NCBI GenBank assembly: GCA_043825875.1
Contig: JBDRRF010000088.1
Span: 1 to 25,261 of the forward strand
Direction of reading: 5' to 3'
Source: Pseudomonadota bacterium
GTDB taxonomy: Bacteria; Desulfobacterota; Desulfobacteria; Desulfobacterales; RPRI01
DNA length: 25,261 bases
The notes under the pieces were generated by a model, which worked only from the letters and a program-made list of their open reading frames with translations, was not told the origin of the DNA and did no database searches. Each line of letters starts with the position of its first letter. Position 1 is the first letter of the stretch. Of the stretch, positions 1 through 23,768 are shown piece by piece. The position numbers were made by a program, and so were the translations under genes.

Positions 1-689
1 TCAAAAAAAGTGTTGATAAACTCGAACAAATCTGAATATTATTAATACTATTTTTTGGGTTGGAAGGAGTAAAAGTTTATACACGTAAACTCTTGCAAAG
101 TACGGTTTAAGCAACTGATATTATAGAATATAAACACCAAACAACCAATGCATTTATCCGGATTAAAATAGCAGTTTTGCTCTTTAGGCTCAGATAAATT
201 ACCACAACATACAATCCCATTTATCTAAAAAATCAATTCAGTGGGTACATTGGCGGGGTATAGCCTTGTTCTACGCTAACTATTTTAAATATACATGGGA
301 ATTCACCTGAGCAGAAGTTATGGAATTTATCTGAGCACTATAGTTAAAAGATATCTGAAAAGAAAAAAACGATCTTTTTGGAAAAAAGACAATAACTATC
401 CATCGTAGTTAATGCATTGAAATATAAGGTTTATTTTTTATCCAAAAAGAGAGAATTTCTGAGGCCGTTAGGATTTCAGTCCGTGCTGGGGTTATGTTGC
501 GAGTTGGGTAAAGTTGTGAGTTTTATCCCGCTTTACCCAGCCCCAAAATAAAAAAATAGTACCCAGCCTATCCCGCCCCATCCCCCGCCTTTTTCAACAG
601 CGAATTCATCACAGATCATAAATAAAATCCTCGTCATCAAGCGGCTCTCTGTACTCTATTCAATACCTTCCCAATGCCTGATGTATATT

Positions 690-716
690 TTGACAAATAT
701 CAAAATTTGCTATAAT
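690..716 (+). promoter_or_regulatory. sigma70-type promoter (extended -10) upstream of the ORF6N gene
   Basis: TTGACA at 690-695 and TGcTATAAT at 708-716. The 15-bp spacer is short, but the extended -10 is perfect. Confidence 0.6.
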
Positions 717-792
717 AAAAATGGCATTAAATATAGCAGAAAATGGATATATTAGAAAAAAGATACAATATTACCAAGGATTTGAAAATTTA

Positions 793-1059
793 ATGCCTTC
801 TAAAACAAACGACCTGATTCCAGCGGACCGCATATTTAAAATCATCTACATTATTCGAAATGAAAAAGTCATTTTGGACTCAGATATGGCAGCCCTCTAT
901 GGTGTAGAAACCCGTCGTCTGAATGAACAAGTTCGACGGAATATGGATAAATTCCCAGAAGACTTTATGTTTCAATTAACGAAAGAAGAGTTTGACAACT
1001 TGAAGTCGCAAATTGCGACATCAAGTTCGGGAAGTATTAGGTACGTATTAAACTTTTAA
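793..1059 (+). pseudogene. ORF6N-domain DNA-binding protein (phage antirepressor-like), C-terminally truncated
   Basis: [50 protein letters not shown] is a typical ORF6N N-terminus. The frame stops before the usual PYAFTEQGVAML part. ATG 793 is preferred over 721, which lies only 4 nt after the -10 box. Confidence 0.75.
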
Positions 1060-1174
1060 ACTTGGTTAATATTTGTTGATTCACTAATCGGAGTTTATAC
1101 CATGAAAATCATGAATAGACACTCCGGGAACAATATATTAGATAATTTCAGGAGTGTTGATAGGCAGTTAATAT

Positions 1175-1924
1175 ATGAAACTAATATCAATAACGACACT
1201 ACTTCTTATAACATCCATTACCATATTGGGCATGGTTGGATGTTCAGCAATTGAGAGAAAGTTGCTATTCTATCCTTCTCATCATCCTCATAATAACAGC
1301 CTGACACCATGGAATAGAAACGGCGAAACCATCGGTTACTCACGAATGGTTGAATCGCCTAAGAATGTATGGTTAATGCTACACGGTAATGCTGGTCAGG
1401 CATCTGACCGTTTATACGCGATGTCATGTTTTTCAGATGAGGATTCTATCTTTATTCTTGAATACCCCGGATACGGAGATCGTAAAGGTGTTCCATCGAA
1501 AGAGTCTTTTAACCGTGTTGCCAAAGAAGCCTATCTCTTTCTCAGAGAAACTTACCCTGATATTCCGGTTTGTGTAGTCGGGGAATCTATTGGATCAGGC
1601 CCTGCCTCATCCCTTGCAACTCTTGATAATAAACCTGATAAATTAGTGTTAATTATTCCTTTTGATAAACTTTCTTTAGTTGCCAAAGAGCATTTCCCAT
1701 CTTTTCTTGTTTGGTTGATATTAAAAGACAACTGGGACAATATAGAAGCACTTTCAAACTATAAAGGTGCTATCGAGATTATTGGCGCTGAAGCAGATGC
1801 AGTGATTCCGATACAGCACGCAAAGGCGCTTGCAGCATCCGTTCCGGGGGCAAAGCTTGTAACCATTGATGGCGGACATAATGATTGGTCTTACGAAGGT
1901 AAAGTAAAAATAAGAAACCCGTGA
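1175..1924 (+). CDS. alpha/beta hydrolase (BEM46/ABHD13-like), probable lipoprotein
   Basis: HGNAG, EYPGYG, GESIG nucleophile elbow, ADAVIP and GGHND motifs. Hydrophobic N-terminus ending MVG-C. Confidence 0.85.
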   Translation: MKLISITTLLLITSITILGMVGCSAIERKLLFYPSHHPHNNSLTPWNRNGETIGYSRMVESPKNVWLMLHGNAGQASDRLYAMSCFSDEDSIFILEYPGYGDRKGVPSKESFNRVAKEAYLFLRETYPDIPVCVVGESIGSGPASSLATLDNKPDKLVLIIPFDKLSLVAKEHFPSFLVWLILKDNWDNIEALSNYKGAIEIIGAEADAVIPIQHAKALAASVPGAKLVTIDGGHNDWSYEGKVKIRNP

Positions 1925-2235
1925 GGTTTCATGGCAAAAACTGTTGAAGGCATCTATTCAGACATGCTGACGCGCGTTGATGATTCCTGCCATAATATGC
2001 ATATAATAAGAATTAAAAGGAGACAGGAGAATGTCCAATCATTTGCTAAGGGCATAAATCATGAGCTTAAAACTTTTGCTCTAATATTTTATTGACTTAA
2101 TTTAGGTAGAGTGTTAGCAAAATTCTTGTAAAATTGTTCATTACACAATCTTTGTTATTTTCTGGAAAAAATAATCCGATATCTCATTTTATTATATTAT
2201 ACCCTCGAAAGGATTTAATATGACCGGATACAATT

Positions 2236-2281
2236 AAGCCCCGATCTTCAGCCCATTGAAGCACGGGGCTTTTGTTTTTTT
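2236..2281 (+). terminator. intrinsic terminator-like hairpin
   Basis: AAGCCCCG (2236-2243) pairs with CGGGGCTT (2264-2271), inner CTTCA/TGAAG, followed by a T-tract. Confidence 0.7.
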
Positions 2282-2403
2282 AAATATTGCAAACTATCAA
2301 AACCCGGAAGTAGAAACTTGCGCTACCAGGTTTGCACTTCAAGTTAAAGTAGCACTTAATATACTTCTATGATGGAACAATAAATTTATGAAAGGATATC
2401 TTA

Positions 2404-3402
2404 ATGAAAAGATTTATCTTTGTATTTTTCTTAGGCATACTTTATCTGGCAGGTTGCGCCACGGCGAATAAGCATTTTCTAAAGGTCGATACCACACCAT
2501 CAGATGCGATTGTATCCGTTCATGAAACTAGTGATGTATCTTCTGCCCAAATCAGACAAATAGCCGGAACTACTCCTTTTGAAAAAACCTTTGATTTCGG
2601 GGAAACGGGGCAACTTTGGCTTGAAATTGAAAGAAGGGGGTACGCTCCTTATATTGAAAAAGTTCTTCCTGAGACAGGAAAGATCTCTATCAATCTTGAA
2701 AAAATTAAAGATAAGAACGGGGAATATATTAGTGGTTATGCTTTACCTGAAATAAATCGCATCCTTTTAGCAAGACCTGATATTAAAATAATTCAAAGGG
2801 GTTTTAGCAATGAAAAAATCTCAGAAGAAAAATCTTCAATTGCACAAGAAGAACTAATAAAAGGAATAAGCAAATTTTTTTCAGGAAAGTATGAAGTGAT
2901 CACCGTTCAACCATCTGATACTGACAAGCCACTTTTACGCTCTCTTTGGAGAGATGTTCGATCTGCAATGGAAATGCTTGATCCGATCAGGCTGAAATAT
3001 TTTGCACAACCTCCATTTCTTGAAACAAAAAGTAGCCGCAAAGCTGCACGCAAGCTTGGGGATATATATAAAACAGAAGTAATACTATTGATAACAGGCA
3101 AGCAAAATCTTGAAACAGCTGGTATGGTAGTGGGAAAAATCGGTATAACGGCAGCGGGAACAGCTTCAAGTTATGCAGGAGGATATAGCCGGGCGCTTTC
3201 AAGGGGGGATTCATTTTTTGTGTATAATATTTATACGCCGAACTTTGCAGAAGGAACTAATTTAAATGCAGCTTTGATCAATTGCAGCAATGGCGAAATA
3301 CTTTGGATAAATAAGGGATTATGGGGACGGATACCCTTTGAGGAACCAGATACAGTCAAAAATATAATTACTGATCTTCTTGACGGCATAAGCCAAAACT
3401 AA
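2404..3402 (+). CDS. lipoprotein with N-terminal PEGA-like domain
   Basis: Lipobox LAG-C18. LKVDTTPSDAIVSV...GTTP...LEIERRGY resembles PEGA. RBS AAAGGA upstream. Confidence 0.7.
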   Translation: MKRFIFVFFLGILYLAGCATANKHFLKVDTTPSDAIVSVHETSDVSSAQIRQIAGTTPFEKTFDFGETGQLWLEIERRGYAPYIEKVLPETGKISINLEKIKDKNGEYISGYALPEINRILLARPDIKIIQRGFSNEKISEEKSSIAQEELIKGISKFFSGKYEVITVQPSDTDKPLLRSLWRDVRSAMEMLDPIRLKYFAQPPFLETKSSRKAARKLGDIYKTEVILLITGKQNLETAGMVVGKIGITAAGTASSYAGGYSRALSRGDSFFVYNIYTPNFAEGTNLNAALINCSNGEILWINKGLWGRIPFEEPDTVKNIITDLLDGISQN

Positions 3403-3433
3403 ATTATAGCAAAAGGTGGAAAGGAAACAGATT

Positions 3434-4024
3434 ATGAAATTGAAAAATACTATATTGACTGGAATTATGATTTTTATCTTAACCGGATGTACATTGCCAT
3501 TAAAGATGTCCCCGGCCCCCAAACTTGATTCATCGGGCATTAATCAACATCCATATACTGCCGGGCTTTTTGTACCGCAGGAAGTTAAAGAATATATTTT
3601 TGTGAAAGCAACAAGTCCACTTGACAAGATGTCTTACCCTATTGGCCAGCAGACTTACGAAATTTTTAAGAATAATATTCCTTTAGTGTTTAAAAATGTT
3701 GTGGAAGTTGACTCAATAACTACTGATAAGAATATTGATCTTATCATAAAGCCATCAATAGTGAAATTTGATCCAGTAATTCCAAATCCTGCATATAATC
3801 CATATACCGCAACTATTATTTATCATATAGACGTATATAACAATAAGGGAGAAAAAATATTTGCGCAAACTGCTACTGGTGACGCACAAACAAGCAAAGG
3901 ACTTTTATCTGGTTTTTCAGCAAGGAGTATATGCGCTGATGTTGCACAAATGGCAATGAAAAAATCTATAAAACAAATTATTGAAGGACTGTCGGAAGCA
4001 GAAGAAATCAAAAATCTAAAATAG
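3434..4024 (+). CDS. hypothetical lipoprotein
   Basis: MKLKNTILTGIMIFILTG-C lipobox when started at ATG 3434 with AAGGA upstream. GTG 3416 is an alternative start. Confidence 0.7.
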   Translation: MKLKNTILTGIMIFILTGCTLPLKMSPAPKLDSSGINQHPYTAGLFVPQEVKEYIFVKATSPLDKMSYPIGQQTYEIFKNNIPLVFKNVVEVDSITTDKNIDLIIKPSIVKFDPVIPNPAYNPYTATIIYHIDVYNNKGEKIFAQTATGDAQTSKGLLSGFSARSICADVAQMAMKKSIKQIIEGLSEAEEIKNLK

Positions 4025-4158
4025 TATTTATGTGATCCTTAAGGGGTGACATTTGGAAGTAATTGACGGATTAATCTTTTAAACATAAGTCAGTTTCAAA
4101 ACGCCCCATTTTGTGACTCCGGCAGGCTCAGTCGAAGGGGAGACAGCAAAAGCATGAC

Positions 4159-4233
4159 ATCCAACAACTGATGATGGTGTCGGTATCACTGGAAGAACAA
4201 TTGATACCGGGCACATTGTAGTACGCGATAAAC
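4159..4233 (+). mobile_element. degenerate attC-like site
   Basis: ATCCAAC (R''-like), imperfect hairpin with core CGGTATCA/TGATACCG, and GATAAAC where GTTRRRY is expected. The next ORF starts right after. Confidence 0.35.
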
Positions 4234-4258
4234 CATGTTTATGAATAAGATGTCTATC

Positions 4259-5350
4259 ATGAAAAAAATTATCTTTGTTCATTCTATCTGCTTATTATTA
4301 TTTTTAATAAGCGGTTGTGCTTCTCAGGTTTTATGGTCTGCAGATGGGGGAAAAATAAAGACCCTTTATAAAATATCGTCCACAAATTTTGAATTTAAAG
4401 GAAAGAATCCATATCGAAGATGGGGTAGTAAAGAGTTTTGTTTTTCATACTCCATCGATGATTTATCAAAGGATAAAAATGTTGCCTACCCTCCATTAAA
4501 TAGTGGTTGCTTTTGTTATATGAATTCAAATGACTATCCTGAATTTATTGAAAAGATTTTTAATGGACCAGTTAGCATAAATATAATAAAAATAAATGCT
4601 ATCGCTACCAAAAAATTAATGATTGGAAGAAATTTTGGCGCTAGAGTTTTAGACAAAGTTATACTTGCTAGAGATTTAGGGCCAAAGGATATTTATATTA
4701 AAAAGTGCAAAGGAGAGCCTATCTATAACCTACATTGGGAAATAAAAGTTAATTTGCCAATAAATCACATTACATTCAATAACATAGAAGAAATAGAATA
4801 CATTAAGCCAAGTAAAAAAGATACTCATTTGATAAATGCGTATTTTAAAATTATTAAGCATAAAGTTTTCGAAAAGTATAAAAAAGAGTATAATGATAGT
4901 TATTTGATGCAATATGATTGTATAAAACCCTTAGGTTGGATAGAAAGTAAAAAATCAAAAATTAGTAGTAATTTGAGAGAAAAAATATATTCAGGGATTC
5001 TATTGAAAGTTAACCATGAGAAAATAAAGACAATCAAAATTTTATTTAATGATGATGATATGAATAATAAAATGGAAACCGTAAATTTAATTTTAAATGA
5101 TAATTATTATTCTTATACTTTCTCATCAATTGTATTTAATATGGAATGCGGTAAATCCAATCATTCAATGGATAATTATTCAGTACTACAGAATTATCCC
5201 TTAGGATGTATTTTTAGACTTCAAAGAATTGGCTACAAATATAATATGCCTACAAGATTGTTATTGACACCTATTGCAATAGGGTTTGACATTGCAACTT
5301 TTCCTTTTGTATCGATTATAGGTCTTTCAGGGTGTGGGCCGCCACCTTGA
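4259..5350 (+). CDS. hypothetical lipoprotein, very AT-rich
   Basis: MKKIIFVHSICLLLFLISG-C lipobox from ATG 4259 (the track starts at 4235). Hydrophobic C-terminus LLLTPIAIGFDIATFPF. Confidence 0.7.
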   Translation: MKKIIFVHSICLLLFLISGCASQVLWSADGGKIKTLYKISSTNFEFKGKNPYRRWGSKEFCFSYSIDDLSKDKNVAYPPLNSGCFCYMNSNDYPEFIEKIFNGPVSINIIKINAIATKKLMIGRNFGARVLDKVILARDLGPKDIYIKKCKGEPIYNLHWEIKVNLPINHITFNNIEEIEYIKPSKKDTHLINAYFKIIKHKVFEKYKKEYNDSYLMQYDCIKPLGWIESKKSKISSNLREKIYSGILLKVNHEKIKTIKILFNDDDMNNKMETVNLILNDNYYSYTFSSIVFNMECGKSNHSMDNYSVLQNYPLGCIFRLQRIGYKYNMPTRLLLTPIAIGFDIATFPFVSIIGLSGCGPPP

Positions 5351-5474
5351 AAAAATAATTTTCTTTCTTCAAGAATCTCTGATTTTGAAGTTCGTTTGCA
5401 CATTATTAATGATTTGCTCTCTAAAAGTACACATGAAGGGGTCTAATGGACGTTAATATCTGAGCTCTTGACAC

Positions 5475-5609
5475 TTAGGGTTTCTTCAGACAAAACCTCA
5501 CGATTCCGCCCTTGCCTCCGGCCAATGTTTATGCTAATGATATTAACCATTAACAGGGTATCAAAACAGGGGCTTTCACCCCATGAGTTCGCGCCCATGC
5601 CGTGCATAC
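5475..5609 (-). mobile_element. 5' relic (part of domain I) of a group IIC-attC intron
   Basis: Minus strand reads TTGT|GTATGCACGGCATGGGCGCGAACTCATGGGGTGAAAGCCCCTG...GGCCGGAGGCAAGGGCGGAATCGTGAGGTTTTGTCTGAAGAAACC, matching my recollection of class C intron 5' ends. No RT ORF or domain V follows. Left boundary is approximate. Confidence 0.75.
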
Positions 5610-5685
5610 ACAAGGCATTTTAAACTGTCAGGGGAAAGCTCCTGCTTTTTAAAACAATATCACCTGGCTTAATTTTGAGTTAGAG
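5610..5685 (+). mobile_element. attC site interrupted in R'' by the intron relic
   Basis: AC-aaggc-ATTTTAAAC...TCAGGGGA / TCACCTGG...GCTTAAT-tttga-GTTAGAG, with 5-nt spacers on both arms. RBS and GTG start follow within 15 nt. Confidence 0.65.
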
Positions 5686-5699
5686 GAGTAAATAATATC

Positions 5700-6584
5700 G
5701 TGAGGGGTTTAAAATTATTTAACCTTCGTAAAAAGCAAAGGTCGACAAAATATTTTTTAATTTTGGCCATATTGATAGGTTTTCTTACAATCCATATTAG
5801 TGGATGTGGTAATAACGCCGGCAATAACAGCATTGAGTTTAAAAAGGTCGATGGCCGGGTTGAGCCTTTGAATCACCAAACGATTTCAGAACCATTCGTG
5901 ACACTGGCACTTAAAAGAGAGATTTATCTACCCTATCTAGAGGTTGGAGCCCGGTTGGCACCACCTTTCGAACTACCACGTCGCTTGCAAGGTGGTGCAC
6001 TCAGATTTCGAGTTCAGTCGGTAAAGACACAAGGCAATCTGGACATATATGATAAAGATCATGCTATGGAAAAAAATATTTTTGCAAATGTTATCTGGTT
6101 GAACTTCGACGAAAGTAAAGAATTATGGTCCGGCAGCCGTCAAATCTATTTAAGCGACTTTAATACTATCCCATTAGAAAACATATCAGGCGTTGAAGGC
6201 ACATTGCTTCTGAGGGTGCCGGTTGATCCAGTGACAGTTGAATTTAATTTAAAGAATTATGCCGGCAGATATGAAGTAAATGGCGTCCGTTTCGAGATCA
6301 AGCATCTTAGTCCAAAAAAGGTTGAGCTTTTGATACACGGCAACGATGAAAACTATATGGGGATGGATGCGCTGGTAAAAGGTGCTTGGTTGCGAACATT
6401 AGGACTGGGGCATTCTTTCACGAAGACTTCGCAGGATCAGATAGTTATTGAAGAACATCAGATCAGCGTCAACTTTCCACAATCCGTAGAAGCAATCAAA
6501 CTTTATTTTTGTGCAGGATATAATTCGGTTGAGTCCGAAATCCTTATTCGGCCGGATAAGGTGTTTACAAAAAGCCTGGATTAG
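5700..6584 (+). CDS. hypothetical lipoprotein (gene cassette)
   Basis: 294-aa ORF, RBS AGGAG, lipobox-like ISG-C, bounded by GTTAGAG and an attC site. Confidence 0.7.
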   Translation: MRGLKLFNLRKKQRSTKYFLILAILIGFLTIHISGCGNNAGNNSIEFKKVDGRVEPLNHQTISEPFVTLALKREIYLPYLEVGARLAPPFELPRRLQGGALRFRVQSVKTQGNLDIYDKDHAMEKNIFANVIWLNFDESKELWSGSRQIYLSDFNTIPLENISGVEGTLLLRVPVDPVTVEFNLKNYAGRYEVNGVRFEIKHLSPKKVELLIHGNDENYMGMDALVKGAWLRTLGLGHSFTKTSQDQIVIEEHQISVNFPQSVEAIKLYFCAGYNSVESEILIRPDKVFTKSLD

Positions 6585-6599
6585 AAAAGACAGGGTTTA

Positions 6600-6699
6600 A
6601 TCTAACCTGTAAGCTCAGGCAAGTTTATGAGCAATTGGAAATTATCGCATTTATGGAAATCAGTGAAAGCCCTTGATGCACCTGACTTCTTTGTTATCC
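6600..6699 (+). mobile_element. attC recombination site (100 bp)
   Basis: R'' ATCTAAC (6600-6606), 5-nt spacer, L'' AGCTCAGG (6612-6619) pairing with L' CCTGACT (6681-6687) with one unpaired base, 5-nt spacer, R' GTTATCC (6693-6699). It starts 15 nt after a stop codon and ends 12 nt before the next ATG. Confidence 0.8.
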
Positions 6700-6711
6700 T
6701 AAGGAGATGAT

Positions 6712-7056
6712 ATGGAACAACAATCGGAATTGAAGGACTATATTCACACCGATTTGAATAAGGAAAACAATGTTATTGCAGGACACTATGTCCTGACGGA
6801 AGAAACCCGCCTCCCTTTTCACGACCGTGAATTCTTCTACTTTTTGGGGGAAGGCGTACTCGACAACTCATGCTGTGGATTTGGAAATTTGTCTTATGCT
6901 ATTGTGCCTGGTTTCATAGTTGATTGGAAATATAGAAAGTCCGCAGACGGTTTCCCAGTTTCCAGGGTTGAGCCTATCAGAGACAAGGCTCTGCAAAATG
7001 AGATTATATTCCTGATTGAACAAAAAGATACGGTCTGCCAGGTATCCTTTCTATAA
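6712..7056 (+). CDS. hypothetical protein with SCCG motif
   Basis: 114-aa ORF with strong RBS TAAGGAG. No function recognised. Confidence 0.7.
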   Translation: MEQQSELKDYIHTDLNKENNVIAGHYVLTEETRLPFHDREFFYFLGEGVLDNSCCGFGNLSYAIVPGFIVDWKYRKSADGFPVSRVEPIRDKALQNEIIFLIEQKDTVCQVSFL

Positions 7057-7097
7057 AAAGCAATACGCCAATTAAACCACGTTGTGAAAAGAGAGTA

Positions 7098-8522
7098 ATG
7101 ACTATTTCCGATTTTAGAACTAAACCTGTATTCATAAAGCGGCTTCTTGTAACAATTTGCTTAGTCGCTGTATATCGATTGGGCTTGTTGTTGCCTCTTC
7201 CCTTTTTAGATGCCGAAGCCTTAAAAGGTCAATTTGGTATTTTCACCTCACACAGTACTACAGATGGGCACCTATCAATATTCTTGCTTGGCATCATGCC
7301 CTATGTTTCGGCCTATATCCTTGTAGAACTAACTTCCCTTTGCATCCCCTTTTTAAAAAAACTTCGGTCTGGGGATTTTAAAGGCCGTTTAAAATTAAAA
7401 CGTATTTCTTTGGTTCTGGCGTTGGGCTTGGCTACCTATCAGGCAACCAGTATAGTATCAAGCCTTAATAGTATGGATTTATCGGATGGCAAATCGATTT
7501 TAAACATTTCTACTACGTTTGAACACGTAATTTTGGTTTGCGTGATGGTGGGTAGCTTCTACCTGCTAGTAGCAATATGCGAAATGATTTCCAGGTTCGG
7601 CATCGGCCACGGGATTTCGATTATCATATTGAGCGGCATTTGCGGAGGTTTTATTGGTCGGGTTCCCATGTATTTTAAACAGTTAGAATATCATGATGTT
7701 TTCTCTTATTTTATTGCATTCATTGTGTTTTGCGCATTAATAGCTTTTACATTTGTTTTATTGAAAAATAAAATCCCTATTCCCTGCTATCACGAAAAAG
7801 ATAATAAAATAGTTGGTTATTTTCAGCTTAATCAATCCCCTTCCTCTATGGTTGCATTGACCTATGCTGCTTCTATTGTTATGCTGCCGCCAACCCTATC
7901 GCATTTTTTTGGTAACGGAAGCAGTATAGCAAACTATCTTAACCCAGGCTCCATTGGATATAATTTAATCTCAATTATTTGTGTGTTCATGTTCAGCTTC
8001 CTATTTGGATGGGCATTTCTTCATCCGCGCAGAAGAATAAGTAAAATGCGGGAAAGAGGTTGGCATATCGCGGATATGGGAACAACCGCTGAAAGTTTTA
8101 TACTTAAAAGGATGTTTATTTACAACCTGCCATGGACAATCTTTTTATGTATAATGGTAGTAGTACCCTCAACACTGATATCCGTTGCCAATGTTCCCTT
8201 TTATCTTGGTGGTAGCTCCATACCAATAATCGTTGCAGTAAGCCTTGACCTAATTGGCAGTTTCAGATTTTATAGCAATGGCATTAATAAACCGGTAAAG
8301 ATTGCCGAATTTCATGACATCTATGATGCCAATATGATCCAAAACCACATGAAAGCCGCAGGTATAAAAAGTTATTTGCAGTGCTACCATCACAGATTGT
8401 TACGCTATTTTTTTGGCCCTCATCTTGATATGGGCCTTATCATAGATGCTAGGGACAAAGAAAAAGCGCAAACTTTAATTAAAGATTTTTATAATGGACT
8501 CGGATTGTGCCAAAAATCTTGA
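7098..8522 (+). CDS. divergent SecY-family paralogue with C-terminal DUF2007-like domain
   Basis: SecY-like segments in the right order: VYRLGLLLPLP, SIFLLGIMPYVSAYI, EMISRFGIGHGISIII, AASIVMLP, FYLGGSSIPIIVAV. About 10 hydrophobic helices and a soluble tail of about 80 aa. No ribosomal protein genes nearby, so not labelled secY. Confidence 0.85.
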   Translation: MTISDFRTKPVFIKRLLVTICLVAVYRLGLLLPLPFLDAEALKGQFGIFTSHSTTDGHLSIFLLGIMPYVSAYILVELTSLCIPFLKKLRSGDFKGRLKLKRISLVLALGLATYQATSIVSSLNSMDLSDGKSILNISTTFEHVILVCVMVGSFYLLVAICEMISRFGIGHGISIIILSGICGGFIGRVPMYFKQLEYHDVFSYFIAFIVFCALIAFTFVLLKNKIPIPCYHEKDNKIVGYFQLNQSPSSMVALTYAASIVMLPPTLSHFFGNGSSIANYLNPGSIGYNLISIICVFMFSFLFGWAFLHPRRRISKMRERGWHIADMGTTAESFILKRMFIYNLPWTIFLCIMVVVPSTLISVANVPFYLGGSSIPIIVAVSLDLIGSFRFYSNGINKPVKIAEFHDIYDANMIQNHMKAAGIKSYLQCYHHRLLRYFFGPHLDMGLIIDARDKEKAQTLIKDFYNGLGLCQKS

Positions 8523-8589
8523 TATAATTGATGATTAACTGCTGAGTCATTTCCAGCATCTCAGCCTCGACATTTGCAGGAGAATATTA

Positions 8590-8880
8590 ATGGACATTTT
8601 AGCATTTATACCACTTATCATTTACATTTTAATATGTATCGGGCTGGGAGCAATACCGGGTATTATTGCAAAGCGAAAACACCGAAATAGAGCTATGTGG
8701 TGGGTTGCAGGAGCATTTGGATTTCCTATTGCCCTTATATGTATCCTATGTTTTCGGGACCTCGATCAAATCCCGGAAGATAAAAAGGTATCATCTAAAC
8801 TGAAAGAAAAAATAATTTTAGTAGCCATTTTAGTGCTTTGGGTAGTAATGATCTTATCGAGAATTAAAGCTGTAAATTAA
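8590..8880 (+). CDS. small membrane protein
   Basis: 96 aa, three hydrophobic segments, RBS AGGAG. Confidence 0.7.
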   Translation: MDILAFIPLIIYILICIGLGAIPGIIAKRKHRNRAMWWVAGAFGFPIALICILCFRDLDQIPEDKKVSSKLKEKIILVAILVLWVVMILSRIKAVN

Positions 8881-8981
8881 AAACTGTCAATTGAACAATG
8901 AACACGACCAAACTATAAAATGGCAGCCTGATTATTGGCCTAATCCTTCAATCAGAAAACATAAAACATGGAGGTAATACT

Positions 8982-9368
8982 TTGCTAATCAGGAAATCTG
9001 CATTAAAATTAATTATTGTTCTATTACTATCAGCAATTTCTGGGTTTGCTCAGGATAAAACAGTTGAAACGGCTGAAAAGCTGATGATCTATCAACTGGA
9101 AGCATTAAAAAGCGAAGACTATCAGAAATTCATTGCGCATGGAAATAAGGCATTTAAAGAATTTACGTACAAATATTCATTTGATTCTTTGATAATGCAA
9201 AGGAAGGCGAAAATAGCAAAAGGCTATCGATTGGAATATCTTGGTGATATAAGAAGTATCGGCATGAGAAAGCATTTGTGGAAAGTCCATATCACTGGTG
9301 ATAAATATCAACTATTAGGAAGCCTGAGCCTTTCGCATGGAAAAGTAGTTGGCTTTAATTTAGAATAG
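8982..9368 (+). CDS. hypothetical secreted protein
   Basis: TTG start behind GGAGG. Signal peptide-like N-terminus ending GFA-QD. Confidence 0.7.
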   Translation: MLIRKSALKLIIVLLLSAISGFAQDKTVETAEKLMIYQLEALKSEDYQKFIAHGNKAFKEFTYKYSFDSLIMQRKAKIAKGYRLEYLGDIRSIGMRKHLWKVHITGDKYQLLGSLSLSHGKVVGFNLE

Positions 9369-9492
9369 TCTTTCGGCATCTATTCTTTGTTCATTCTTCA
9401 TGGTTTCCAGGAAGTAAAAACTATTGAAAAACCAGGACCAGTTAAACTGTTAGGCCAATATTACATTGAATATCGATGGTAACAGATTTTAT

Positions 9493-10524
9493 TTATTGAT
9501 GCGCCCTGATAGCTGAATATATTTCAAACAAAGCAAAGAAAAGACTCATGATTAAAGGCCCAAGGAGAAATCCTATTGGTCCGAAAAAAACAATACCTCC
9601 GAGAACAGACAGAAGAATAATCATCGGATGCACCTGCATTCTTTGCCCTACAAGCTTCGGGCCTAAAAAATTATCGATCAGGCCAACAGCTCCTGCTCCC
9701 CAGACAAGAAGGCCGAATCCTGGTAAAATTTTGCCGGTCAAGAAAAGAAACAAGATAGCAGGAATTAAAACAAGCGAGGTTCCTACACCGGGGATAAGAG
9801 CAGACACTGTAGTAAGACTTCCCCAAAACATGGCATTAGGAACTCCAAAAAATGTAAAGCCCGTAGCTGCAAGAGCACCCTGAATAATAGCTATAACAAG
9901 ATTTCCCTTAATAACGGAATTTATAGCACCTCCCAGTTTATTTGAAATTAATTCATTTTCATCAAACGGTAAGGGACTTAAATCAAAAAAAGATTTTTTA
10001 AGCTTTTGGCCATCTTTAAAAAGGTAGTAAAGTGAAGTGAAGAATATAAAAGAATTTATCATTAATTTTGCAGCATTCGAGAAAATACCACCTATTTGCT
10101 TAAGCAGTAACCCAAGACCTTCTCTTAGATACATATCAATATCAATCTTAAAATCTTTTACGGCAGGCAGGAATCTGCCTATGTTTTCAATCAGCTTATT
10201 CATTATATCGTGAACACTTTTCTTTGCACCACCTTCTGCAAGAGAAAAATATAGTTGCTGAGCTTCATTAAGTATCTGAATTCCAAATAATATAATTGGC
10301 ACAAGTAAAATGCTTATAACAAGTACCGTGGTAATAAGCGCTGAAAGCCCGCTTCGTTGTTTTGTAAGACGAAGAAAATATTTATAAACAGGCTGAAAAA
10401 CAACGGCAAAAACCACTGAAAAAATAAGAGTGTAGATAAAAGGGCGAAAAATAAAAAAAACAAGAGTTAAAGATCCTGCAAGCAGGGCGGCAAGAAAATA
10501 AAAATGAGGTTTCCAATTATCCAT
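9493..10524 (-). CDS. AI-2E family transporter (UPF0118/PerM-like)
   Basis: 343 aa, multi-TM, motifs YYLFKDG, IAIIQG, LIPGVGT, IDNFLGPKLVG, GPIGFLLGP. Confidence 0.9.
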   Translation of the reverse strand: MDNWKPHFYFLAALLAGSLTLVFFIFRPFIYTLIFSVVFAVVFQPVYKYFLRLTKQRSGLSALITTVLVISILLVPIILFGIQILNEAQQLYFSLAEGGAKKSVHDIMNKLIENIGRFLPAVKDFKIDIDMYLREGLGLLLKQIGGIFSNAAKLMINSFIFFTSLYYLFKDGQKLKKSFFDLSPLPFDENELISNKLGGAINSVIKGNLVIAIIQGALAATGFTFFGVPNAMFWGSLTTVSALIPGVGTSLVLIPAILFLFLTGKILPGFGLLVWGAGAVGLIDNFLGPKLVGQRMQVHPMIILLSVLGGIVFFGPIGFLLGPLIMSLFFALFEIYSAIRAHQ

Positions 10525-10920
10525 AATTAAGGTTTCCTGAATAATTCACAGTTTGCTATCGTTTTGTAAAAGCGGTTGATTCTTTGAATCCGCACAATAT
10601 TTTCCATTTAATTTTCTTCGATAAGATAGCATTGTTTTGAAATTGGCTCAATATATTAAATGCGTTTTAGAAAACTTTAAGTATCTTTAGCAGCACTATT
10701 TGAAAGTGGCTCTTTCTTTAAACATATTATTCTTGTTGACATTAAACAAGGGCAGGCGTAGAAATGCTTGCTCTAAAATTATTGAGAGTTAATTATCTAA
10801 TAATATTTCTAATATTTTATAGGATTTATAATAAAGAATTGCAAAAGCCTGTGTTTATCGATTTATTAAATTTATTTCGATTTCATGCAGGCTTTTATGC
10901 ATTAATAACAGGATAATAAT

Positions 10921-12444
10921 ATGGCAGCAAATCTTACTAATACACAGAATCAATCTGCTCTTTTGCCTTTTATATATGATTTCAGGCAGCATTTGATTGC
11001 ATTCTATAAGCCTTTGTCTTCAAAGAATAAACAAATTGATATTTTAATCAAAATCTTGATTTGCTTTGGTGTTGCTTCAATTATAGTACTCGATATATTG
11101 TTTTTAGAACGTATTTCAATGGTTAGACAAGAGTTGAGACAAAATCCCTATGGAAGAGCTTTTATGTCATTTGTACTGGTCTTTTTTTGGGTTAATATAA
11201 TTGAGTTTTTATGGAGGCTTTATCTTGTTTTTAAATATAAGCCTGTTTCCTCGATGCCGGATGAAGAATTGCTTTCATGCAGTGTTATTGTGCCTGCTTT
11301 CAACGAAGGTAAGCAGGTATATCTTACACTGAAAAGTCTTGCAGAAAGCAACTATCCATTGCAAAAACTTCAAATAATTGCTGTTGATGATGGGAGCGCT
11401 GATGATACGTGGGAATGGATATCTAAAGCAAAGAAAGAATTGGGAAAAAGAATTATAGCAATAAAGTTGCCTAAAAATAAAGGAAAAAGGCATGCTCTTT
11501 ATTCCGGATTTCAGCAAAGTAAAGGTGATATACTCGTAACTGTTGACAGCGATTCTGAAGTTACACCTGATACTCTTAGAAATCTTATAAGTCCGTTTGT
11601 TAAAGATGAAACAACAGGTGCTGTTGCCGGTAATATACGGGTTCTTAACCGTAATGAAGGCATAATTCCAAAGATGCTTGATGTGATATTTGTTTTCAGT
11701 TTTGATTTCATCCGGGCCAGTCAAAGCATGGTCAATACTGTGTTGTGTACTCCGGGCGCACTTTCGGCTTACCGCAGAAATGTAGTAATCCCGATCCTTT
11801 CCGAATGGCTTAATCAAAGATTTTTCGGGAAGCCTTCTACTATAGGTGAGGATAGGGCCATGACAAACCTTATCATCAGGGAAGGGTATAATGTTTATTT
11901 CCAGCGAAACGCGGTAGCATTTACCAATGCTCCCGTAAAATATATAAATCTTTGTAAGATGCTTTTGCGCTGGGCACGCAGCCACATCCGTGAAAGCATA
12001 GTTATGTCACGTTTTATATTTACAAAGTTCAGGAAACATTCAGCACTTGGAGTGCGTATAAATTTCATTTTAAATAGCATGGGAATAATTTTATCCCCGT
12101 TTTTTCTTTTTACAACAATTGCATGTTTTTGTTGGCGTACAATGGAGTTTGGAATAATCATATTGGCAGGAATAATATTTACATCAAGTGTGGCAAGTAT
12201 TTTATACACAAAGCGTTGCAGGAACTCGGACGGACTATTTGCCTATTTATACGGGATTTTTGCGATAGTAAGCCTTTCGTGGATATCTGTTTATTCCCTT
12301 GCTACGCTCCATCACGCCGGTTGGTTGACCCGTGGCAGCAGTGCTGAAAGCAGAAAATCAGCAGTAAAAAGCCAAAGAGTATACTTTGATTTTAATGAAG
12401 TAAATACCGGAAAAGAAATTCCCTCAAGGTTGATAATATCATAA
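10921..12444 (+). CDS. processive family 2 glycosyltransferase (hyaluronan synthase/NodC/chitin synthase-like)
   Basis: VPAFNE, VDDGS, VDSDS, CTPGALSAYR, GEDR and LLRW motifs, flanked by N- and C-terminal TM helices. Confidence 0.9.
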   Translation: MAANLTNTQNQSALLPFIYDFRQHLIAFYKPLSSKNKQIDILIKILICFGVASIIVLDILFLERISMVRQELRQNPYGRAFMSFVLVFFWVNIIEFLWRLYLVFKYKPVSSMPDEELLSCSVIVPAFNEGKQVYLTLKSLAESNYPLQKLQIIAVDDGSADDTWEWISKAKKELGKRIIAIKLPKNKGKRHALYSGFQQSKGDILVTVDSDSEVTPDTLRNLISPFVKDETTGAVAGNIRVLNRNEGIIPKMLDVIFVFSFDFIRASQSMVNTVLCTPGALSAYRRNVVIPILSEWLNQRFFGKPSTIGEDRAMTNLIIREGYNVYFQRNAVAFTNAPVKYINLCKMLLRWARSHIRESIVMSRFIFTKFRKHSALGVRINFILNSMGIILSPFFLFTTIACFCWRTMEFGIIILAGIIFTSSVASILYTKRCRNSDGLFAYLYGIFAIVSLSWISVYSLATLHHAGWLTRGSSAESRKSAVKSQRVYFDFNEVNTGKEIPSRLIIS

Positions 12445-12603
12445 TAAGTTGCAGTCCTGACGGCTTTATATCCTATGAAGCCGGCAGTAAATAACTTACA
12501 ATTCAAGATGATTTGTACTTTCTATTCCTGCATCTAACCAATGTTTTAAGGCTTTTAAAAACCCGTTAATAAATTTGACAAAGTCGTGAAAAATCCCCGA
12601 ACC

Positions 12604-12630
12604 GTCATACCGGCGAAAGCCGGTATCCAG
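12604..12630. repeat. REP-like palindrome
   Basis: GTC-ATACCGGC-GAAA-GCCGGTAT-CCAG: perfect 8-bp stem with GAAA loop. Confidence 0.6.
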
Positions 12631-12783
12631 AGCATATTAACCCTGTAGGCAGTAACGTTAAATAAAATTCAAAGCTTTTGGTGACAAATGATAAATTTCA
12701 ATGTATGGAATAAATTTCATAAATGAAAAAATGTTCTAATTGATATAACATCACAAAACAATCAACAATAAGTAGTTTTTGTT

Positions 12784-13305
12784 ATGTTTCTTTCTTCAGA
12801 TAAATATGTGGTCTTTGATGTTGAAACAACCGGCTTTAATCCACAGCATGGCGCAAGGGTTATTGAAATCGGTGCTGTTTATATTGAAAATGGCCATATA
12901 ATTTCAGAGTTCAAAAGCCTTATCAATTGCGGCAAAACTGTTCCAAAACAAACTCAAAAAGTACACGGCATAACAGATGAAATGCTGTTGGGGGAGCCAA
13001 CTCCCGAAGAAGTTTTTCCCGATTTTATTAAATTCATTTCAAAAAGTACGCTTATAGCCCATAACGCCGTATTTGATATAAGTTTTCTTCGGCATGAACT
13101 TTCCCGTCTCGGATTCGGCTTGAACAATGACTACCTATGCACTTTAAATATGAGCAGAAAACTCTACCCCGAACTGGAAAATCACAAACTTCTTACAGTT
13201 GCAAAACATGTTTTGGTCAATTTGCCGGAGAATCTTCACTTGCATCGCGCGCTGGATGATGCGAGGCTTACAGCAATGATTTGGATGGAGATGGTGAAAA
13301 GATGA
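12784..13305 (+). CDS. DEDDh (DnaQ-like) 3'-5' exonuclease
   Basis: ExoI FDVETTG, ExoII HNAVFD, ExoIII HRALDDA. Confidence 0.92.
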
Positions 13306-13418
13306 GTGAAGCATATAAAAGCTATTACAGGTATTGGGGAAAAACGCGGGATGATGGAAGTTATCATTTGTTGCCGTATCATTGTCTGGATGTGGCGGCG
13401 ATAGGATGGAGCGTATGA
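13302..13418 (+). pseudogene. 38-aa relic of a Cas3 HD-domain N-terminus
   Basis: Hand translation [42 protein letters not shown]...[11 protein letters not shown] is the E. coli-type Cas3 N-terminal motif. ATGA overlaps at both ends. Confidence 0.85.
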
Positions 13419-16084
13419 TTGCAGACTATTTATGGGCAAAATATGGTTCGGATGATGGTCTGTGGCATCCAATAATTCTTCATATGTTGGATGTGGCCGC
13501 AGTCGCTGGCTTTGTTTGGGAACATAATCTGGATGATGGACTTCGGAAGCGGCTGGAAAGTAGTTTCCCATCGAATGATATCAAGTCCCTGATCATGTTC
13601 TTGGCCGGTGCGCACGATATCGGCAAGGCCAGTCCTGGATTTCAAAAGAGAGTTTGGCGAATAGCTGAATGTTCAGGATTTCTTTACTCTGAGAATGATC
13701 GCAACTGCCCGCATGGACAGGTGACCGCCGTTGTCTTAAGAGAATTTCTGCCCCCTACTTTCAGCCTTTTAGGCCAGATTTCCGGCGGGCACCACGGTGT
13801 ATTCCCTCGCTCATCACAACTCCAACTCGGCAAAGACTCACTGGGTAACAAGCAATGGCAAGAAGCTCGAACTGAAACATTGATCAAATTCGCGGGGATC
13901 GTTGGTTTTGATTTCAGGCAACAGCCTACACCTGAGATAAGTGATCCGCTGGTTGTTTCCGCGTTAGCCGGTTTTATTTCGGTTGTGGACTGGATTGGCT
14001 CGAATCAGGATTTCTTCCCGTGCTTTGCGGTGTGCGGCAAGGTTATTGAGATTGATCCGGCCAATTATTGGAAAGAAGCGCAAAATAAAGCGCGGCGGGC
14101 GCTGGGCAAACTTGGGTGGTTTCCCGGCGTAACTTTCGATAGAGAAACTTCCTTCGATCAGGTCTTCGCTACTCTTACCGCCAACTCCCTGCAATCCGCC
14201 ACGATCGACCTCTCTTCGGGACAAAATAATCCCTACCTTATGATTGTCGAAGCCCCCATGGGGGAGGGTAAGACGGAGGCGGCTCTATACGCGGCGGATC
14301 TTGCGATGTGCAGGGGCTTTGCCCGCGGCATGTATATCGCCATGCCCACACAGGCGACAGGCAATGCGATGTTCAAACGGGTGCTGGATAGCTACCTGCG
14401 CAAGCGCGGCCATAAAGGAAAGTTGAACCTCCAACTCGTGCATGGCGATGCGCTTCTGGCGCAAATGGCGGATGTTCAAGAGGGAGAAGTCCCGGTTTTC
14501 AAACCTGAGAACATTGGCGAGGATGGAGCTGACGTGGAAGCCCAATCGTGGTTCACCGCAAAAAAGCGACCGCTTCTTGCGCCTTTCGGCGTCGGAACGA
14601 TTGACCAGAGCTTGCTGAGTGTCTTGCAAACAAAACATTGGTTCGTGCGATTGTTCGGTTTGGCGGGCAAGGTGATCATTTTCGATGAGGTCCACGCTTA
14701 TGACGCTTACATGAGCACAATCCTCGAAAGGCTGCTGCACTGGCTCGCGGAACTGGATTGCACGGTGATTCTTCTCTCGGCAACCCTGCCTGAGGCCAAG
14801 CGCAAAGCGCTTGCCAAGGCTTATTCAGGCAGGGAGGATGTCGAATACAGGCGATATCCGAGAATTACGCTTGCCAAGCCGCGTCATTATCCCCAAACTC
14901 AGGCAGACAAGCTGTCTGTCTGTACTGAGATCCCCATGGAGAAATCGCGCACCATTGATCTGCAATTCTGCAACACCGATTTGGCGGAAATGACTTCAAC
15001 CTTGGCGGAACGACTGAAGCAAGGTGGATGCGCCGCCGTGATCTGCAACACGGTCAATCGCTCCATCGAGGTTTACAGGCATCTTCGAGACACTCTCGAA
15101 AACACCGAGTGCATGCTTTTTCATGCCCGGACGCTCCAGATGTGGCGGCGTGAGCGCGAAGAAGAAGTCCTCCGCAAGTTCGGTAAACGCGACCTCCAAG
15201 AGAAAGATGCAGAAGGTCGCTTCATTAATCCCGATCGTCCACATCGCGGAGTGTTGGTTGCGACGCAGATCGTAGAACAAAGTCTTGATCTCGATTTCGA
15301 TTTCATGGTCTCCGAGATAGCTCCTGTTGACCTGTTGCTCCAACGTTCGGGACGCTTGCACCGCCACCCGCGCAAACGACCGCCCGGCTTGGAAACACCC
15401 CGGTTGATCGTTCTCTGCGGCGCTGACCGGGTAGGCCCGCCACCGGAATCTTTTGGAAAGAGCATTGAGTATGTCTACGATCGTTATATTCTTCTGCGGA
15501 CCTGGCTGGCTCTGCGCGGGCGAAACGAAATCAATGCACCTGACGAAATCGAGTCGCTTGTGGAAGCCGTTTATGGCGAGTCATCCGAGGAAGCTGATGA
15601 GTCCTGGCGGCTTGCCCTGGAGCAGGCAGATGAAACAATGGCGGGAGAGTATCTAGCGTCTAAAACCATTGCGCGGCAACTGCTCGTCGCAGAGCCGCAG
15701 GACCCCGCTGATCTTGTCGAAGAATTCAATAGCCAATTGCTTGATGACGAGAATCCCGAGGCCCACAAGACGGTGAAGGCGGCAACGCGCGAGGGCGCTC
15801 CTTCCATTACTGTCGTTATTTTGCCGGCGGATACGCGGCTGACTCATGAACCAACGATTTCCGAGGTTCGCCGCTTGCTGGATAGTTCTGTCAAACTGAG
15901 CCATAAAGCGCTGTTCCAGGCGTTTCTTCAGAATGGCGAAGCGCCTGAGCAGTGGAAGGAGAATGCCCATCTGCGCCACGCACGCCTTATGCGACTGGTT
16001 GAGCGGAACTCGGGGCGTGTGGGTAACTATAGATTGACTTTGGATAAACAATTGGGTCTCGTGATTGAGACTAAGGAGGGCTAA
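13415..16084 (+). CDS. cas3: Cas3 HD nuclease-helicase
   Basis: [51 protein letters not shown]. Start moved to ATG 13415 (GGAG upstream, ATGA overlap). Confidence 0.97.
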
Positions 16085-16087
16085 AAC

Positions 16088-17830: not shown

Positions 17831-18393
17831 GCCTGGACGACCAACAAAAAACCTTTATTGGCTATCTGCTCAACCTTGCCAAGGAAGGGCAGGAAGACCG
17901 GGGTGCGCTGGCCGACCTGCGTACCGGCCTTGGAAAGGAGCCGGGGCAAATGGCCCGCGTGCACAGGCATGTTGTGCCGTATCTGCCGGAGCAGCGTTAC
18001 AACGACCGCTGGTATTATGTGACGGCGACGCTGTTCGGGGCATTTCCGCAACATCGGAAAGGCCATACGCTGGGCAAGGCGTTCAAGCCACTGGCATTCC
18101 CGCCGGGGGAAAAGAAGAAGGAGAGCATGGAAGCTCGCTTTGTGGCACTGCTCAACGCGCATCCCGACGACTTGGACGACCATCTGCGCCATGCTGTCAG
18201 TTTGCTGAAGGCCAACGAGCAACCACTTGACTGGTTTTGCCTTTTGGACGACCTGCTTCAATGGGACCATCCGGAGGGTCATGTCCAGTTGAAATGGGCG
18301 GGTGATTTTTACAAAATCAATAACCGCAGTGGAGATGATACCTCTCAATCCAGTACAACCTTAGAAGAAAAGGAGATCAAAAGCCATGAATAA
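17827..18393 (+). CDS. cse2: type I-E small subunit Cas11 (Cse2/CasB)
   Basis: DRGALADLRTGLG, EARFVALL, HLRHAVSLLK, LDW..LLDDL..W motifs and gene position. Confidence 0.93.
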   Translation: MSLDDQQKTFIGYLLNLAKEGQEDRGALADLRTGLGKEPGQMARVHRHVVPYLPEQRYNDRWYYVTATLFGAFPQHRKGHTLGKAFKPLAFPPGEKKKESMEARFVALLNAHPDDLDDHLRHAVSLLKANEQPLDWFCLLDDLLQWDHPEGHVQLKWAGDFYKINNRSGDDTSQSSTTLEEKEIKSHE

Positions 18394-20382: not shown

Positions 20383-20384
20383 TC

Positions 20385-21167: not shown

Positions 21168-21189
21168 TTTCATCCAGGAGACCGGATAA

Positions 21190-21687: not shown

Positions 21688-21689
21688 AA

Positions 21690-22547: not shown

Positions 22548-22570
22548 TTTTTGAAAGGGGGACCATAAGA

Positions 22571-23768
<1,198 letters not shown>

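Follow-up and report, generated by a model that had tools for sequence, protein, structure and literature searches.

A rare family of bacterial SecY paralogues with a C-terminal DUF2007-fold domain, remodelled docking loops and an altered pore

SecY, which is highly conserved and well studied, is understood as a passive pore that needs the ribosome or SecA on its C4 and C5 loops and is sealed by a plug and a ring of isoleucines. What could a SecY do when the docking loops, the plug and the ring have all been changed and a further domain has been attached? The question is raised by a gene at positions 7098 to 8522 of contig JBDRRF010000088.1 (assembly GCA_043825875.1), from a bacterium of the order Desulfobacterales; the whole stretch analysed, 25,261 nt of this contig, is called the window here. 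The gene belongs to a distinct, conserved and rare family of bacterial SecY paralogues, which occur as extra copies beside the normal SecY. Family members keep the ten-helix channel and the structural Gly/Pro motifs of SecY and always carry a C-terminal cytoplasmic DUF2007-fold domain. No account of a SecY–DUF2007 fusion turned up in full-text searches of a literature library that lacks some subscription journals, and among the papers listed in a DUF2007 literature search SecY appeared in no title or abstract opening.

The gene and the parts of its product discussed below lie as follows, with the basis of each assignment in brackets.

7098..8522, + strand: SecY–DUF2007 fusion gene, 474 aa (intact open reading frame (ORF) with an ATG start; Pfam SecY, 135.9 bits; AlphaFold2 (AF2) model)
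7098..8282, + strand: SecY channel core, residues 1-395, ten transmembrane (TM) helices (helices of the AF2 model; VIA-align Z 27-30)
7203..7286, + strand: plug/P1 segment, residues 36-63, shortened and poorly conserved, without an FSGG-type motif (length, motif counts and predicted local distance difference test, pLDDT)
7326..7328, + strand: Glu77 in TM2b, at the position of E. coli Q93 (family-defining replacement)
7767..7850, + strand: C4 hairpin, residues 224-251, trimmed, with the basic tip lost (length and net charge)
7860..7862, + strand: Thr255 at the TM7 pore-ring position, E. coli I278 (alignment register)
8022..8087, + strand: C5 loop, residues 309-330, remodelled, with HPRRR...RGW replacing the PGIRPG loop (motif counts and alignment)
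8283..8519, + strand: C-terminal, cytoplasmic DUF2007-fold domain, residues 396-474, with the family motif YHHRxLxYFFGP (PF09413 and 2hfv)

The SecY profile PF00344 gave the full-length match for which the sequence-only reading of this DNA had proposed a check: profile positions 1-305 of 306 were aligned to residues 60-385 of the 474-aa protein, with an expect value (E) of 2.5e-39 and 135.9 bits against a gathering score of 32.2. A profile built from the family matched E. coli SecY at 255 bits, and BLASTP aligned the paralogue with the canonical SecY of its own genome at 29% identity (116/405; E 7e-44). In that alignment, GWHIADM--GTT of the paralogue faces GGYIPGIRPGKRT of the canonical protein and the PGIRPG motif is absent; the MFSGG motif of the canonical plug region has no counterpart, and the segment is shorter. 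Two details of the sequence-only reading were thereby confirmed, namely that the cytoplasmic loop reads GWHIADMGTT rather than IPGIRPG and that the FSGG motif is missing. With the NCBIfam equivalog model of housekeeping SecY (TIGR00967), the paralogue scored 119.6 bits, under the curated cut-off of 253.6, and with the SecY2 models it scored 67.4 bits (TIGR02920; cut-off 249.6) and 67.5 bits (NF009082; cut-off 353).

The genome (4.77 Mb, 99.8% complete) contains two SecY matches, a canonical 438-aa gene on contig C38 (413.8 bits) and the window's copy (137 bits), so the circumstance in which the sequence-only reading would have failed, that this is the only secY of the genome, does not apply. 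Flanking the canonical gene, as assigned by eye, are L30, L15, methionine aminopeptidase, IF-1, and S13. Around the paralogue lie lipoprotein-like ORFs and genes for an AI-2E transporter and a glycosyltransferase, not ribosomal-protein genes. There is one SecE and one SecA (a single SecA_DEAD match); neither a second SecA nor a SecA2 was found with the SecA_DEAD profile in this 99.8%-complete genome.

The size and spread of the family were estimated with several collections. A word-indexed protein search returned 131 matches passing E 1e-3, and the tail was present in 67 of the 120 listed; a search of 1.84 billion 50%-identity representatives gave 60 matches at E 1e-30 or better, and 71 of the best 150 representatives carried the tail. 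A scan of metagenome contigs that used tail patterns only recovered 80 loci, and in 76 of these the tail lay inside a SecY-like ORF. Forty-seven of these ORFs are at least 440 aa long, 20 of them window-like (440-500 aa) and 27 of 501-560 aa; the longer class forms one large sub-clade, distinguished by an N-terminal CxxC...CxxC zinc ribbon. Among the 29 shorter ORFs, 19 start within 160 nt of a contig end. A stand-alone form of the family tail was not found (a search for shorter forms gave three matches, two of them on contigs of 1.2-1.6 kb), and a search for longer fused forms gave none. Named carriers are a Smithella metagenome-assembled genome (MAG), the cultured Desulfogranum marinum, and a Nitrospirota MAG, and look-alike clusters in the ESM Atlas come chiefly from Acidobacteriota, Myxococcota, and Thermodesulfobacteriota. 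Members appear in public records as "preprotein translocase subunit SecY," "DUF2007 domain-containing protein," or "hypothetical protein." Closer to the window the gene is scarce: the tail was present in 1 of 41 genomes in a sample of the genus and order, that one being the window's genome, and in 2 of 401 genomes of the phylum. None of 16 congeners has the gene, and a divergent second SecY occurs in 1 of 17 genomes of the genus, again the window's own. Canonical SecY is also present in all three genomes known to carry the fusion.

In an unrooted tree of 113 sequences (64 family members and 49 canonical SecY from at least ten phyla, SecY2 not being included), a single branch splits the family from canonical SecY with a Shimodaira–Hasegawa-like approximate likelihood-ratio test (SH-aLRT) value of 99. 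The same split was obtained with 50 sequences under a site-heterogeneous mixture model (SH-aLRT 96). Such a tree shows separation and not the relative age of the two groups; branches are much longer in the family than in canonical SecY. Canonical sequences for the tree came from a whole-family scan of a genome collection, in which one of the three patterns also matches canonical SecY and nearly all of the 80 loci kept were ordinary secY. A TIGR02920 search of 301 genomes of one Bacillota-type phylum gave no match over the cut-off.

Estimates of the ratio of nonsynonymous to synonymous substitution rates (dN/dS, NG86) ranged from 0.087 to 0.338 in 14 of 21 pairs; of the other pairs, five were saturated and two near-identical. 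Against its nearest relatives the window's gene gave 0.171 and 0.150, and dN was similar in core and tail (0.190 vs 0.162, and 0.141 vs 0.162). Family-specific invariant residues are kept in members 23-72% identical to the window's protein. Because dN/dS is low and dN is of similar size in both parts, the gene is under selection and not decaying. The view of the sequence-only reading that this is a repurposed SecY-fold paralogue is thus upheld by the NCBIfam scores, which place it outside housekeeping SecY and SecY2, and by the tree branch; of the outcomes that it had named as damaging, grouping within housekeeping SecY and relaxed selection were not seen (SH-aLRT 99 and 96; dN/dS 0.15-0.17 against the nearest relatives).

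Residues were counted in the 64 family and 49 canonical sequences, with E. coli numbering taken from an alignment to chain 5abb_A. The two groups share the LGxMPY and GIGxGIS motifs, the C2 Arg (E. coli R113) and the TM10 Asp. They differ most plainly at the cytoplasmic loops. PG[IVL]RPG, the C5 motif with the conserved Arg (E. coli R357), occurs in none of the 64 family members and in 22 of the 49 canonical sequences. C5 has lost its canonical Gly/Pro positions, which HPRRR...RGW replaces in the window's sub-clade; W322 is found in 29 of the 64 members. The C4 hairpin has a median length of 25.5 residues in the family vs 33 in canonical SecY, its median net charge is +2 vs +7, and the canonical Y-A-x-R positions are lost. 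According to passages of PMC4602035, the C4 and C5 loops bind FtsY and also serve as major sites of ribosome binding, and position 357 cross-links to FtsY; excerpts of PMC13537251 describe severe translocation defects in C4 and C5 mutants, and by the passages of both sources it is chiefly at these loops that the ribosome, FtsY, and SecA make contact.

The plug and the pore are altered as well. Between P35 and L64, the stretch that holds the plug has a median length of 30 aa in family members and 39 in canonical SecY, and the F[SGA]GG plug motif occurs in 1 of 64 vs 36 of 49 sequences. The canonical pore ring is a set of six aliphatic residues; five of the six positions are still hydrophobic, and the lateral-gate helices are conserved. 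The exception is the TM7 position (I278). Ile stands there in 48 of 49 canonical sequences, whereas 47 of the 64 family members have a small or polar residue and 13 an aliphatic or aromatic one; Ser, Thr, Gly, Ala, or Asn is found in most members. The register of TM7 is anchored by residues that both groups share (G250, P253, an aromatic at 256, A257, and P264). The TM2b position of E. coli Q93 is occupied by Glu in 60 of the 64 members, whereas 46 of the 49 canonical sequences have Gln. Four of the ring positions are named in PMC13537251, excerpts of which list I278S, I278A, and I278Y among super-active SecY variants. Passages of PMC11494458 place I278N and I408N among the most extreme prlA alleles, attribute export without a proper signal sequence and transient openings to plug deletions, and report leakage upon Gly substitutions in the pore ring.

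Set against this literature, sequence comparison shows that the docking features for the ribosome, FtsY, and SecA have been removed or remodelled family-wide, and that the family has fixed the sort of change by which the closed state of SecY is destabilised. The suggestion that the loop contacting SecA and the ribosome had been lost in the window's protein therefore extends to the family, with PG[IVL]RPG in 0/64 and C4 trimmed.

An AF2 model built from a 73-row alignment had a mean pLDDT of 92.0 and a predicted template modelling score (pTM) of 0.90, and contained all ten helices; the plug segment was its least confident part (pLDDT 62-68). The best eight VIA-align matches were all substrate-engaged SecA–SecY complexes (Z 27.2-29.7, root-mean-square deviation (rmsd) 2.5-3.1 Å over 361-389 residues). 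Resting or Fab-bound Thermus SecYE(G) came next, with Z about 22 and rmsd 4.2-4.4 Å, and Foldseek ranked the structures in the same order. Since substrate-engaged complexes outrank resting SecYE(G) by about 5 Z units, the predicted structure looks open-like.

The tail domain of about 80 aa starts about 5 residues past TM10, which places it on the cytoplasmic face. PF09413 matched residues 401-464 of the window's protein at 18.4 bits with the whole sequence and 23.0 bits with the tail alone, in both cases under the gathering score of 25.7. The same profile matched 16 of 16 family tails (best E 2.5e-8), and two relatives were above the cut-off at 31.9 and 27.4 bits. The modelled topology is β-α-β-(short helix)-β-α. 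Among 48,161 chains the top structural match was 2hfv, the founder of DUF2007 (Z 10.2, 77 of 79 residues aligned), so the initial description of the tail as DUF2007-like is borne out by its predicted fold. Type III secretion ring-building domains followed (Z 8.2-9.2), and ACT-type domains and one PII-like chain (1o51, VIA Z 5.8) were weaker matches at Z 5.7-6.5. Foldseek retrieved PstA, GlnK, and SbtB weakly (E 0.05-0.25), and the P-II family was not among the six Pfam families matched by the 16 tails. DUF2007 clusters of the ESM Atlas, which elsewhere are fused to zinc ribbons or enzymes, resembled the tail with template modelling scores of 0.76-0.79.

Conservation within the tail centres on A403, E404, H432, R433, L435, F438, and P441, which are invariant in the family alignment, and on the motif YHHRxLxYFFGP in the β2-β3 loop, present in 39 of 64 family members and in none of the 49 canonical sequences. 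The conserved loop at residues 426-445 had a pLDDT of 67-73 when the tail was modelled alone and at least 93 in the full-length model, a rise that fits docking of the predicted tail on the channel. Among the 40 strongest core-to-tail covarying pairs, 32 join tail helix 1 to C4 (18 pairs), the cytoplasmic start of TM9 (9), or C5 (5), and the periplasmic P1 segment accounts for one; this pattern is suggestive of a docked tail.

The surroundings of the gene were compared with those in the genus and in relatives elsewhere. The features concerned are these.

7062..9444, no strand assigned: 2383-nt segment with the paralogue and two small genes (unrelated 495 nt in the nearest congener)
8590..8880, + strand: 96-aa protein, predicted three-helix membrane protein, in the indel (not found beside relatives)
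8982..9368, + strand: 128-aa protein, in the indel (signal-peptide-like N-terminus, by eye; no family match)
6712..7056, + strand: 114-aa protein, CCGFGN motif (conserved in four congeners, nucleotide identity 76-90%; unmatched in Pfam and NCBIfam)

In the nearest congener (G008, contig C124), the flanks are 90-94% identical; homology breaks off just past the stop codon of the 114-aa gene and is restored from 9445 on, so that the conserved genes include the 114-aa one on the upstream side and those for the AI-2E transporter and the glycosyltransferase on the downstream side. The cassette-like context proposed from the sequence is borne out by this exchange. At the congener's locus (L176, G008:C124), on the reverse strand at about 12113-12421 of the reoriented locus, an open frame for an unrelated 103-aa membrane protein replaces the paralogue segment. 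A second variable spot lies at 4043-6686 of the window, with two lipoprotein-like ORFs (4235-5350, guanine-plus-cytosine (GC) content 27.9%; and 5700-6584); at the equivalent place the nearest congener has no counterpart and about 8 kb of other sequence. The GC content of the paralogue, 38.0%, is not anomalous for a genome at 39.1% (standard deviation (sd) 4.1).

Two neighbours had been put forward as possible partners. The 114-aa protein can be set aside, because four congeners without the paralogue have kept its gene. The gene of the 96-aa protein shares the local indel but does not accompany relatives elsewhere. The clustering of neighbours took in the window, L068, L084, and the 80 metagenome loci, 83 sequences with 548 ORFs in all. 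Shared neighbourhoods are confined to close sub-clades and have unrelated functions, and Pfam assignments of 26 recurrent neighbours were similarly mixed (for example HAD, PAP2, a formate/nitrite transporter, and a molybdopterin oxidoreductase). No small membrane ORF recurs beside the gene in the 36 loci with room upstream and the 54 with room downstream; plausible ones adjoin it in the window and in L091 only, and the two are mutually unrelated. One relative, P0254 (857 aa), consists of a membrane helix, a SecDF P1-head (65.5 bits), a second membrane helix, SecY, and the tail, in a topologically consistent arrangement, and this predicted fusion is a hint towards protein export.

Carriage by mobile elements was considered and rejected, there being no match in plasmids, phages, or viral contigs. 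The idea of a defence island was also dropped: PADLOC was run on 150 of 185 neighbours and matched 13 of the 150, mostly through generic domains, without clear enrichment, and PADLOC-DB 2.0 gave no family for the paralogue and its five nearest neighbours. Scans of 5300-9700 for promoters and terminators were near chance (18 vs 14.3 +/- 3.9, and 7 vs 3.6 +/- 2.4), and Rfam gave no match in 1-13400.

Further features of the window and its relatives stand apart from the paralogue. A complete type I-E cas operon (Cas3, Cse1, Cse2, Cas7, Cas5, Cas6e, Cas1, and Cas2) occupies 13382-23768 (+); its GC content of 50.8%, against 39.1% for the genome, is about 2.9 sd above the mean of 1.4-kb windows, and for this reason the operon was probably acquired horizontally. 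Between cas6e and cas1, at 21190-22547 (+), it includes a PF05635 "23S rRNA-intervening sequence" four-helix-bundle protein and a Bro-N domain protein, which are unusual in a type I-E operon. The CRISPR array at 23853-25261 has at least 23 repeats of about 29 nt with a period of 61 and runs off the contig end; minus-strand ORFs in this region are spurious because it is an array. Directly upstream of cas3, at 12784-13305 (+), lies an RNase T/DEDDh exonuclease gene that matched the PADLOC Cas-associated DEDDh model (E 1.3e-41) and PDC-S48, and the ORF6N-domain protein at 721-1059 (+) matched the candidate defence family PDC-S05 (E 8.1e-32). Short intergenic repeats at 2087-2302, 5472-5616, and 12561-12638 have 17, 7, and 7 matches on 10, 7, and 6 contigs, also occur in congeners, and gave no Rfam match; they may be miniature mobile elements. 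Among the relatives, L070 comes from a MAG labelled Pedobacter sp., whose canonical SecY groups with Syntrophaceae and the window's own and not with other Bacteroidota, so this contig is probably mis-binned. At L092, a signal peptidase S26 gene (491-1609, +; E 4.8e-42) lies directly upstream of the relative, and an ORF three downstream (L092:4344-5681, +) matches pAgo-associated SIR2/PNTD models.

What, then, might such a channel do? The reading favoured here, with a probability of about 40%, is a channel for polypeptides, or an insertase for small proteins, that works alone, opens easily, needs neither the ribosome nor SecA, and is controlled by its own cytoplasmic domain. The paralogue would conduct polypeptides or insert small proteins without ribosome or SecA, through a pore intrinsically easy to open, like that of prlA or "super-active" mutants. 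Because the pore would open so easily, its seal and control would come from the cytoplasmic side, where the tethered tail, predicted to lie on the C4/C5/TM9 face, could close or open the funnel upon binding a ligand or client. Transport would be powered by the proton-motive force or by pulling from the periplasmic side; the single housekeeping SecE would probably be borrowed, and clients would be encoded outside any conserved neighbourhood. A more specific form of this proposal, which must be regarded as doubtful, is a motor-independent protein or peptide channel, gated by ligand or client and constitutively "prl-like," that is sealed by a fused PII-like domain instead of a plug and would constitute a third class of bacterial SecY translocon next to SecYEG and SecY2.

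Several observations weigh against the favoured reading. The C2 loop is conserved and more basic in the family (+6) than in canonical SecY (+2), so some cytoplasmic partner may exist. The eight top structural matches are closely related SecA–SecY complexes, and their kinship rather than their state may widen the gap to resting SecYE(G). The higher pLDDT of the tail loop in the full-length model may reflect a deeper alignment (73 vs 16 rows), and the covariation signal chiefly reflects the division of the family into two sub-clades, the intra-core list being headed by the same core positions. The SecDF fusion is one sequence, on a 6.7-kb contig. Neighbour clustering over the 83 sequences found no conserved client, motor, or SecE/SecG-like neighbour, and the commonest cluster, the SecY-like one aside, occurs in only 10 of 79 loci. 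Finally, six metagenome loci have a second SecY-like ORF directly upstream on the same strand, and some family copies may for that reason be broken or mis-assembled.

The same pore could instead leak solutes or ions under control, released by a ligand-sensing tail for dormancy, stress relief, or abortive infection. Such a role is unlikely on present evidence, though it draws on passages of PMC11494458 in which plug and pore-ring lesions make SecY leaky, on the regulator-type fold of the tail, and on a patchy, accessory distribution (2/401 genomes of the phylum, 0/16 congeners). The setting is compatible with it: the swapped segment occupies a variable spot about 4 kb from a type I-E CRISPR-Cas locus of foreign GC content, the PDC-S05 candidate gene lies in the same window, and two relatives have defence-type neighbours (PDC-S22 at L091, E 1.8e-34; a pAgo-associated protein at L092, 1.9e-23). 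Yet the paralogue itself matched no PADLOC model, the 13 of 150 neighbours that did so matched mostly generic domains, most neighbourhoods are metabolic, and plasmids, phages, and viral contigs gave no match. A polypeptide channel also accounts better for the hydrophobic residues at five ring positions and the conserved lateral-gate helices, and the SecDF-head fusion points to protein export. Export could also proceed with the usual motors, if the paralogue were an accessory translocon that, like SecY2, uses housekeeping SecA or ribosomes for special clients, the tail being a regulatory add-on. The conserved core motifs and C2 Arg (E. coli R113), the SecA, SecE, and canonical SecY available for sharing, and the two small genes of the indel, one for a membrane protein and one exported-looking, would suit this arrangement. 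It nevertheless has a low probability, in view of the absence of the C5 Arg loop from 64/64 members and the loss of the basic C4 tip, changes at loops where E. coli mutations cause severe translocation defects according to excerpts of PMC13537251. A folded domain about 5 residues after TM10 would in addition lie on the partner-docking face, the genome has no second SecA, and no conserved client gene was found beside family members.

Two explanations dispense with conduction altogether. As a regulator or decoy, the protein would act by titrating SecE, SecG, or YidC, by pairing with SecYEG, or by diverting agents for which SecY is the way in. One SecE for two SecY-type proteins would make titration conceivable, and two contact-dependent inhibition toxins exploit SecY for entry, as the abstract of PMC7858069 reports; but channel-lining motifs and hydrophobic ring positions kept under selection would be needless in a pure decoy, and this role appears improbable. 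A decaying duplicate without function, to which the long family branches relative to canonical SecY and the split ORFs at six loci might point, is very improbable: the 474-aa frame is uninterrupted, comparison with the nearest relatives gives a dN/dS of 0.15-0.17 with dN similar in core and tail, family-specific residues are invariant across members 23-72% identical to the window's protein, and the fold is predicted with confidence.

Comparison with known systems places the proposed polypeptide channel more precisely. With housekeeping SecY the paralogue shares the ten-helix fold, LGxMPY, GIGxGIS, the C2 Arg, the TM10 Asp, and five hydrophobic positions out of six in the ring. Unlike housekeeping SecY, it lies outside the ribosomal-protein genes, is not the sole copy, and has an extra C-terminal domain; it also lacks the PGIRPG loop, with C4 trimmed, the plug short, the TM7 Ile replaced, and Q93 changed to Glu. 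SecY2, which works with SecA2, is likewise a second, divergent SecY beside the essential one, but the paralogue scores far below the SecY2 cut-offs, its genome has no second SecA, and conserved partner or client genes are missing. We know of no DUF2007 tail in SecY2. The nearest likeness in the pore is to E. coli prlA and super-active mutants (I278N/S/A/Y, I408N, and plug deletions), in which the same position is substituted and the plug shortened. Those are laboratory alleles of a channel that depends on SecA and the ribosome, whereas the changes in the paralogue are natural, fixed in the family, and accompanied by loss of the docking loops.

For the tail, the docking of GlnK on AmtB offers an analogy. 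PII-like regulators of transporters (SbtB on SbtA; GlnK on AmtB) similarly set a small ferredoxin-like fold at the cytoplasmic face of a channel; the paralogue's domain differs in being covalently fused and in having no Pfam P-II match. Stand-alone DUF2007 proteins with a zinc ribbon have the same fold, and the long sub-clade of the family has the same two modules. A CxxC...CxxC ribbon is carried by the genome's other DUF2007 protein and by a DUF2007 protein beside L111. In the family, by contrast, the modules flank a SecY channel and the β2-β3 loop carries YHHRxLxYFFGP.

In this family, docking loops have been removed, the plug has been shortened, a pore substitution of the prlA/super-active type has been fixed, and a regulator-type domain has been added, and selection persists; the names in public records (SecY, DUF2007, hypothetical) hide this difference. 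The cultured carrier Desulfogranum marinum makes the question of its function testable. Were the paralogue to conduct ions or small solutes, it would show a protein channel turned into a regulated solute channel. Were it to conduct polypeptides, it would reveal a different manner of driving and gating a SecY channel, and the family would provide a natural test of gating models derived from laboratory mutants.

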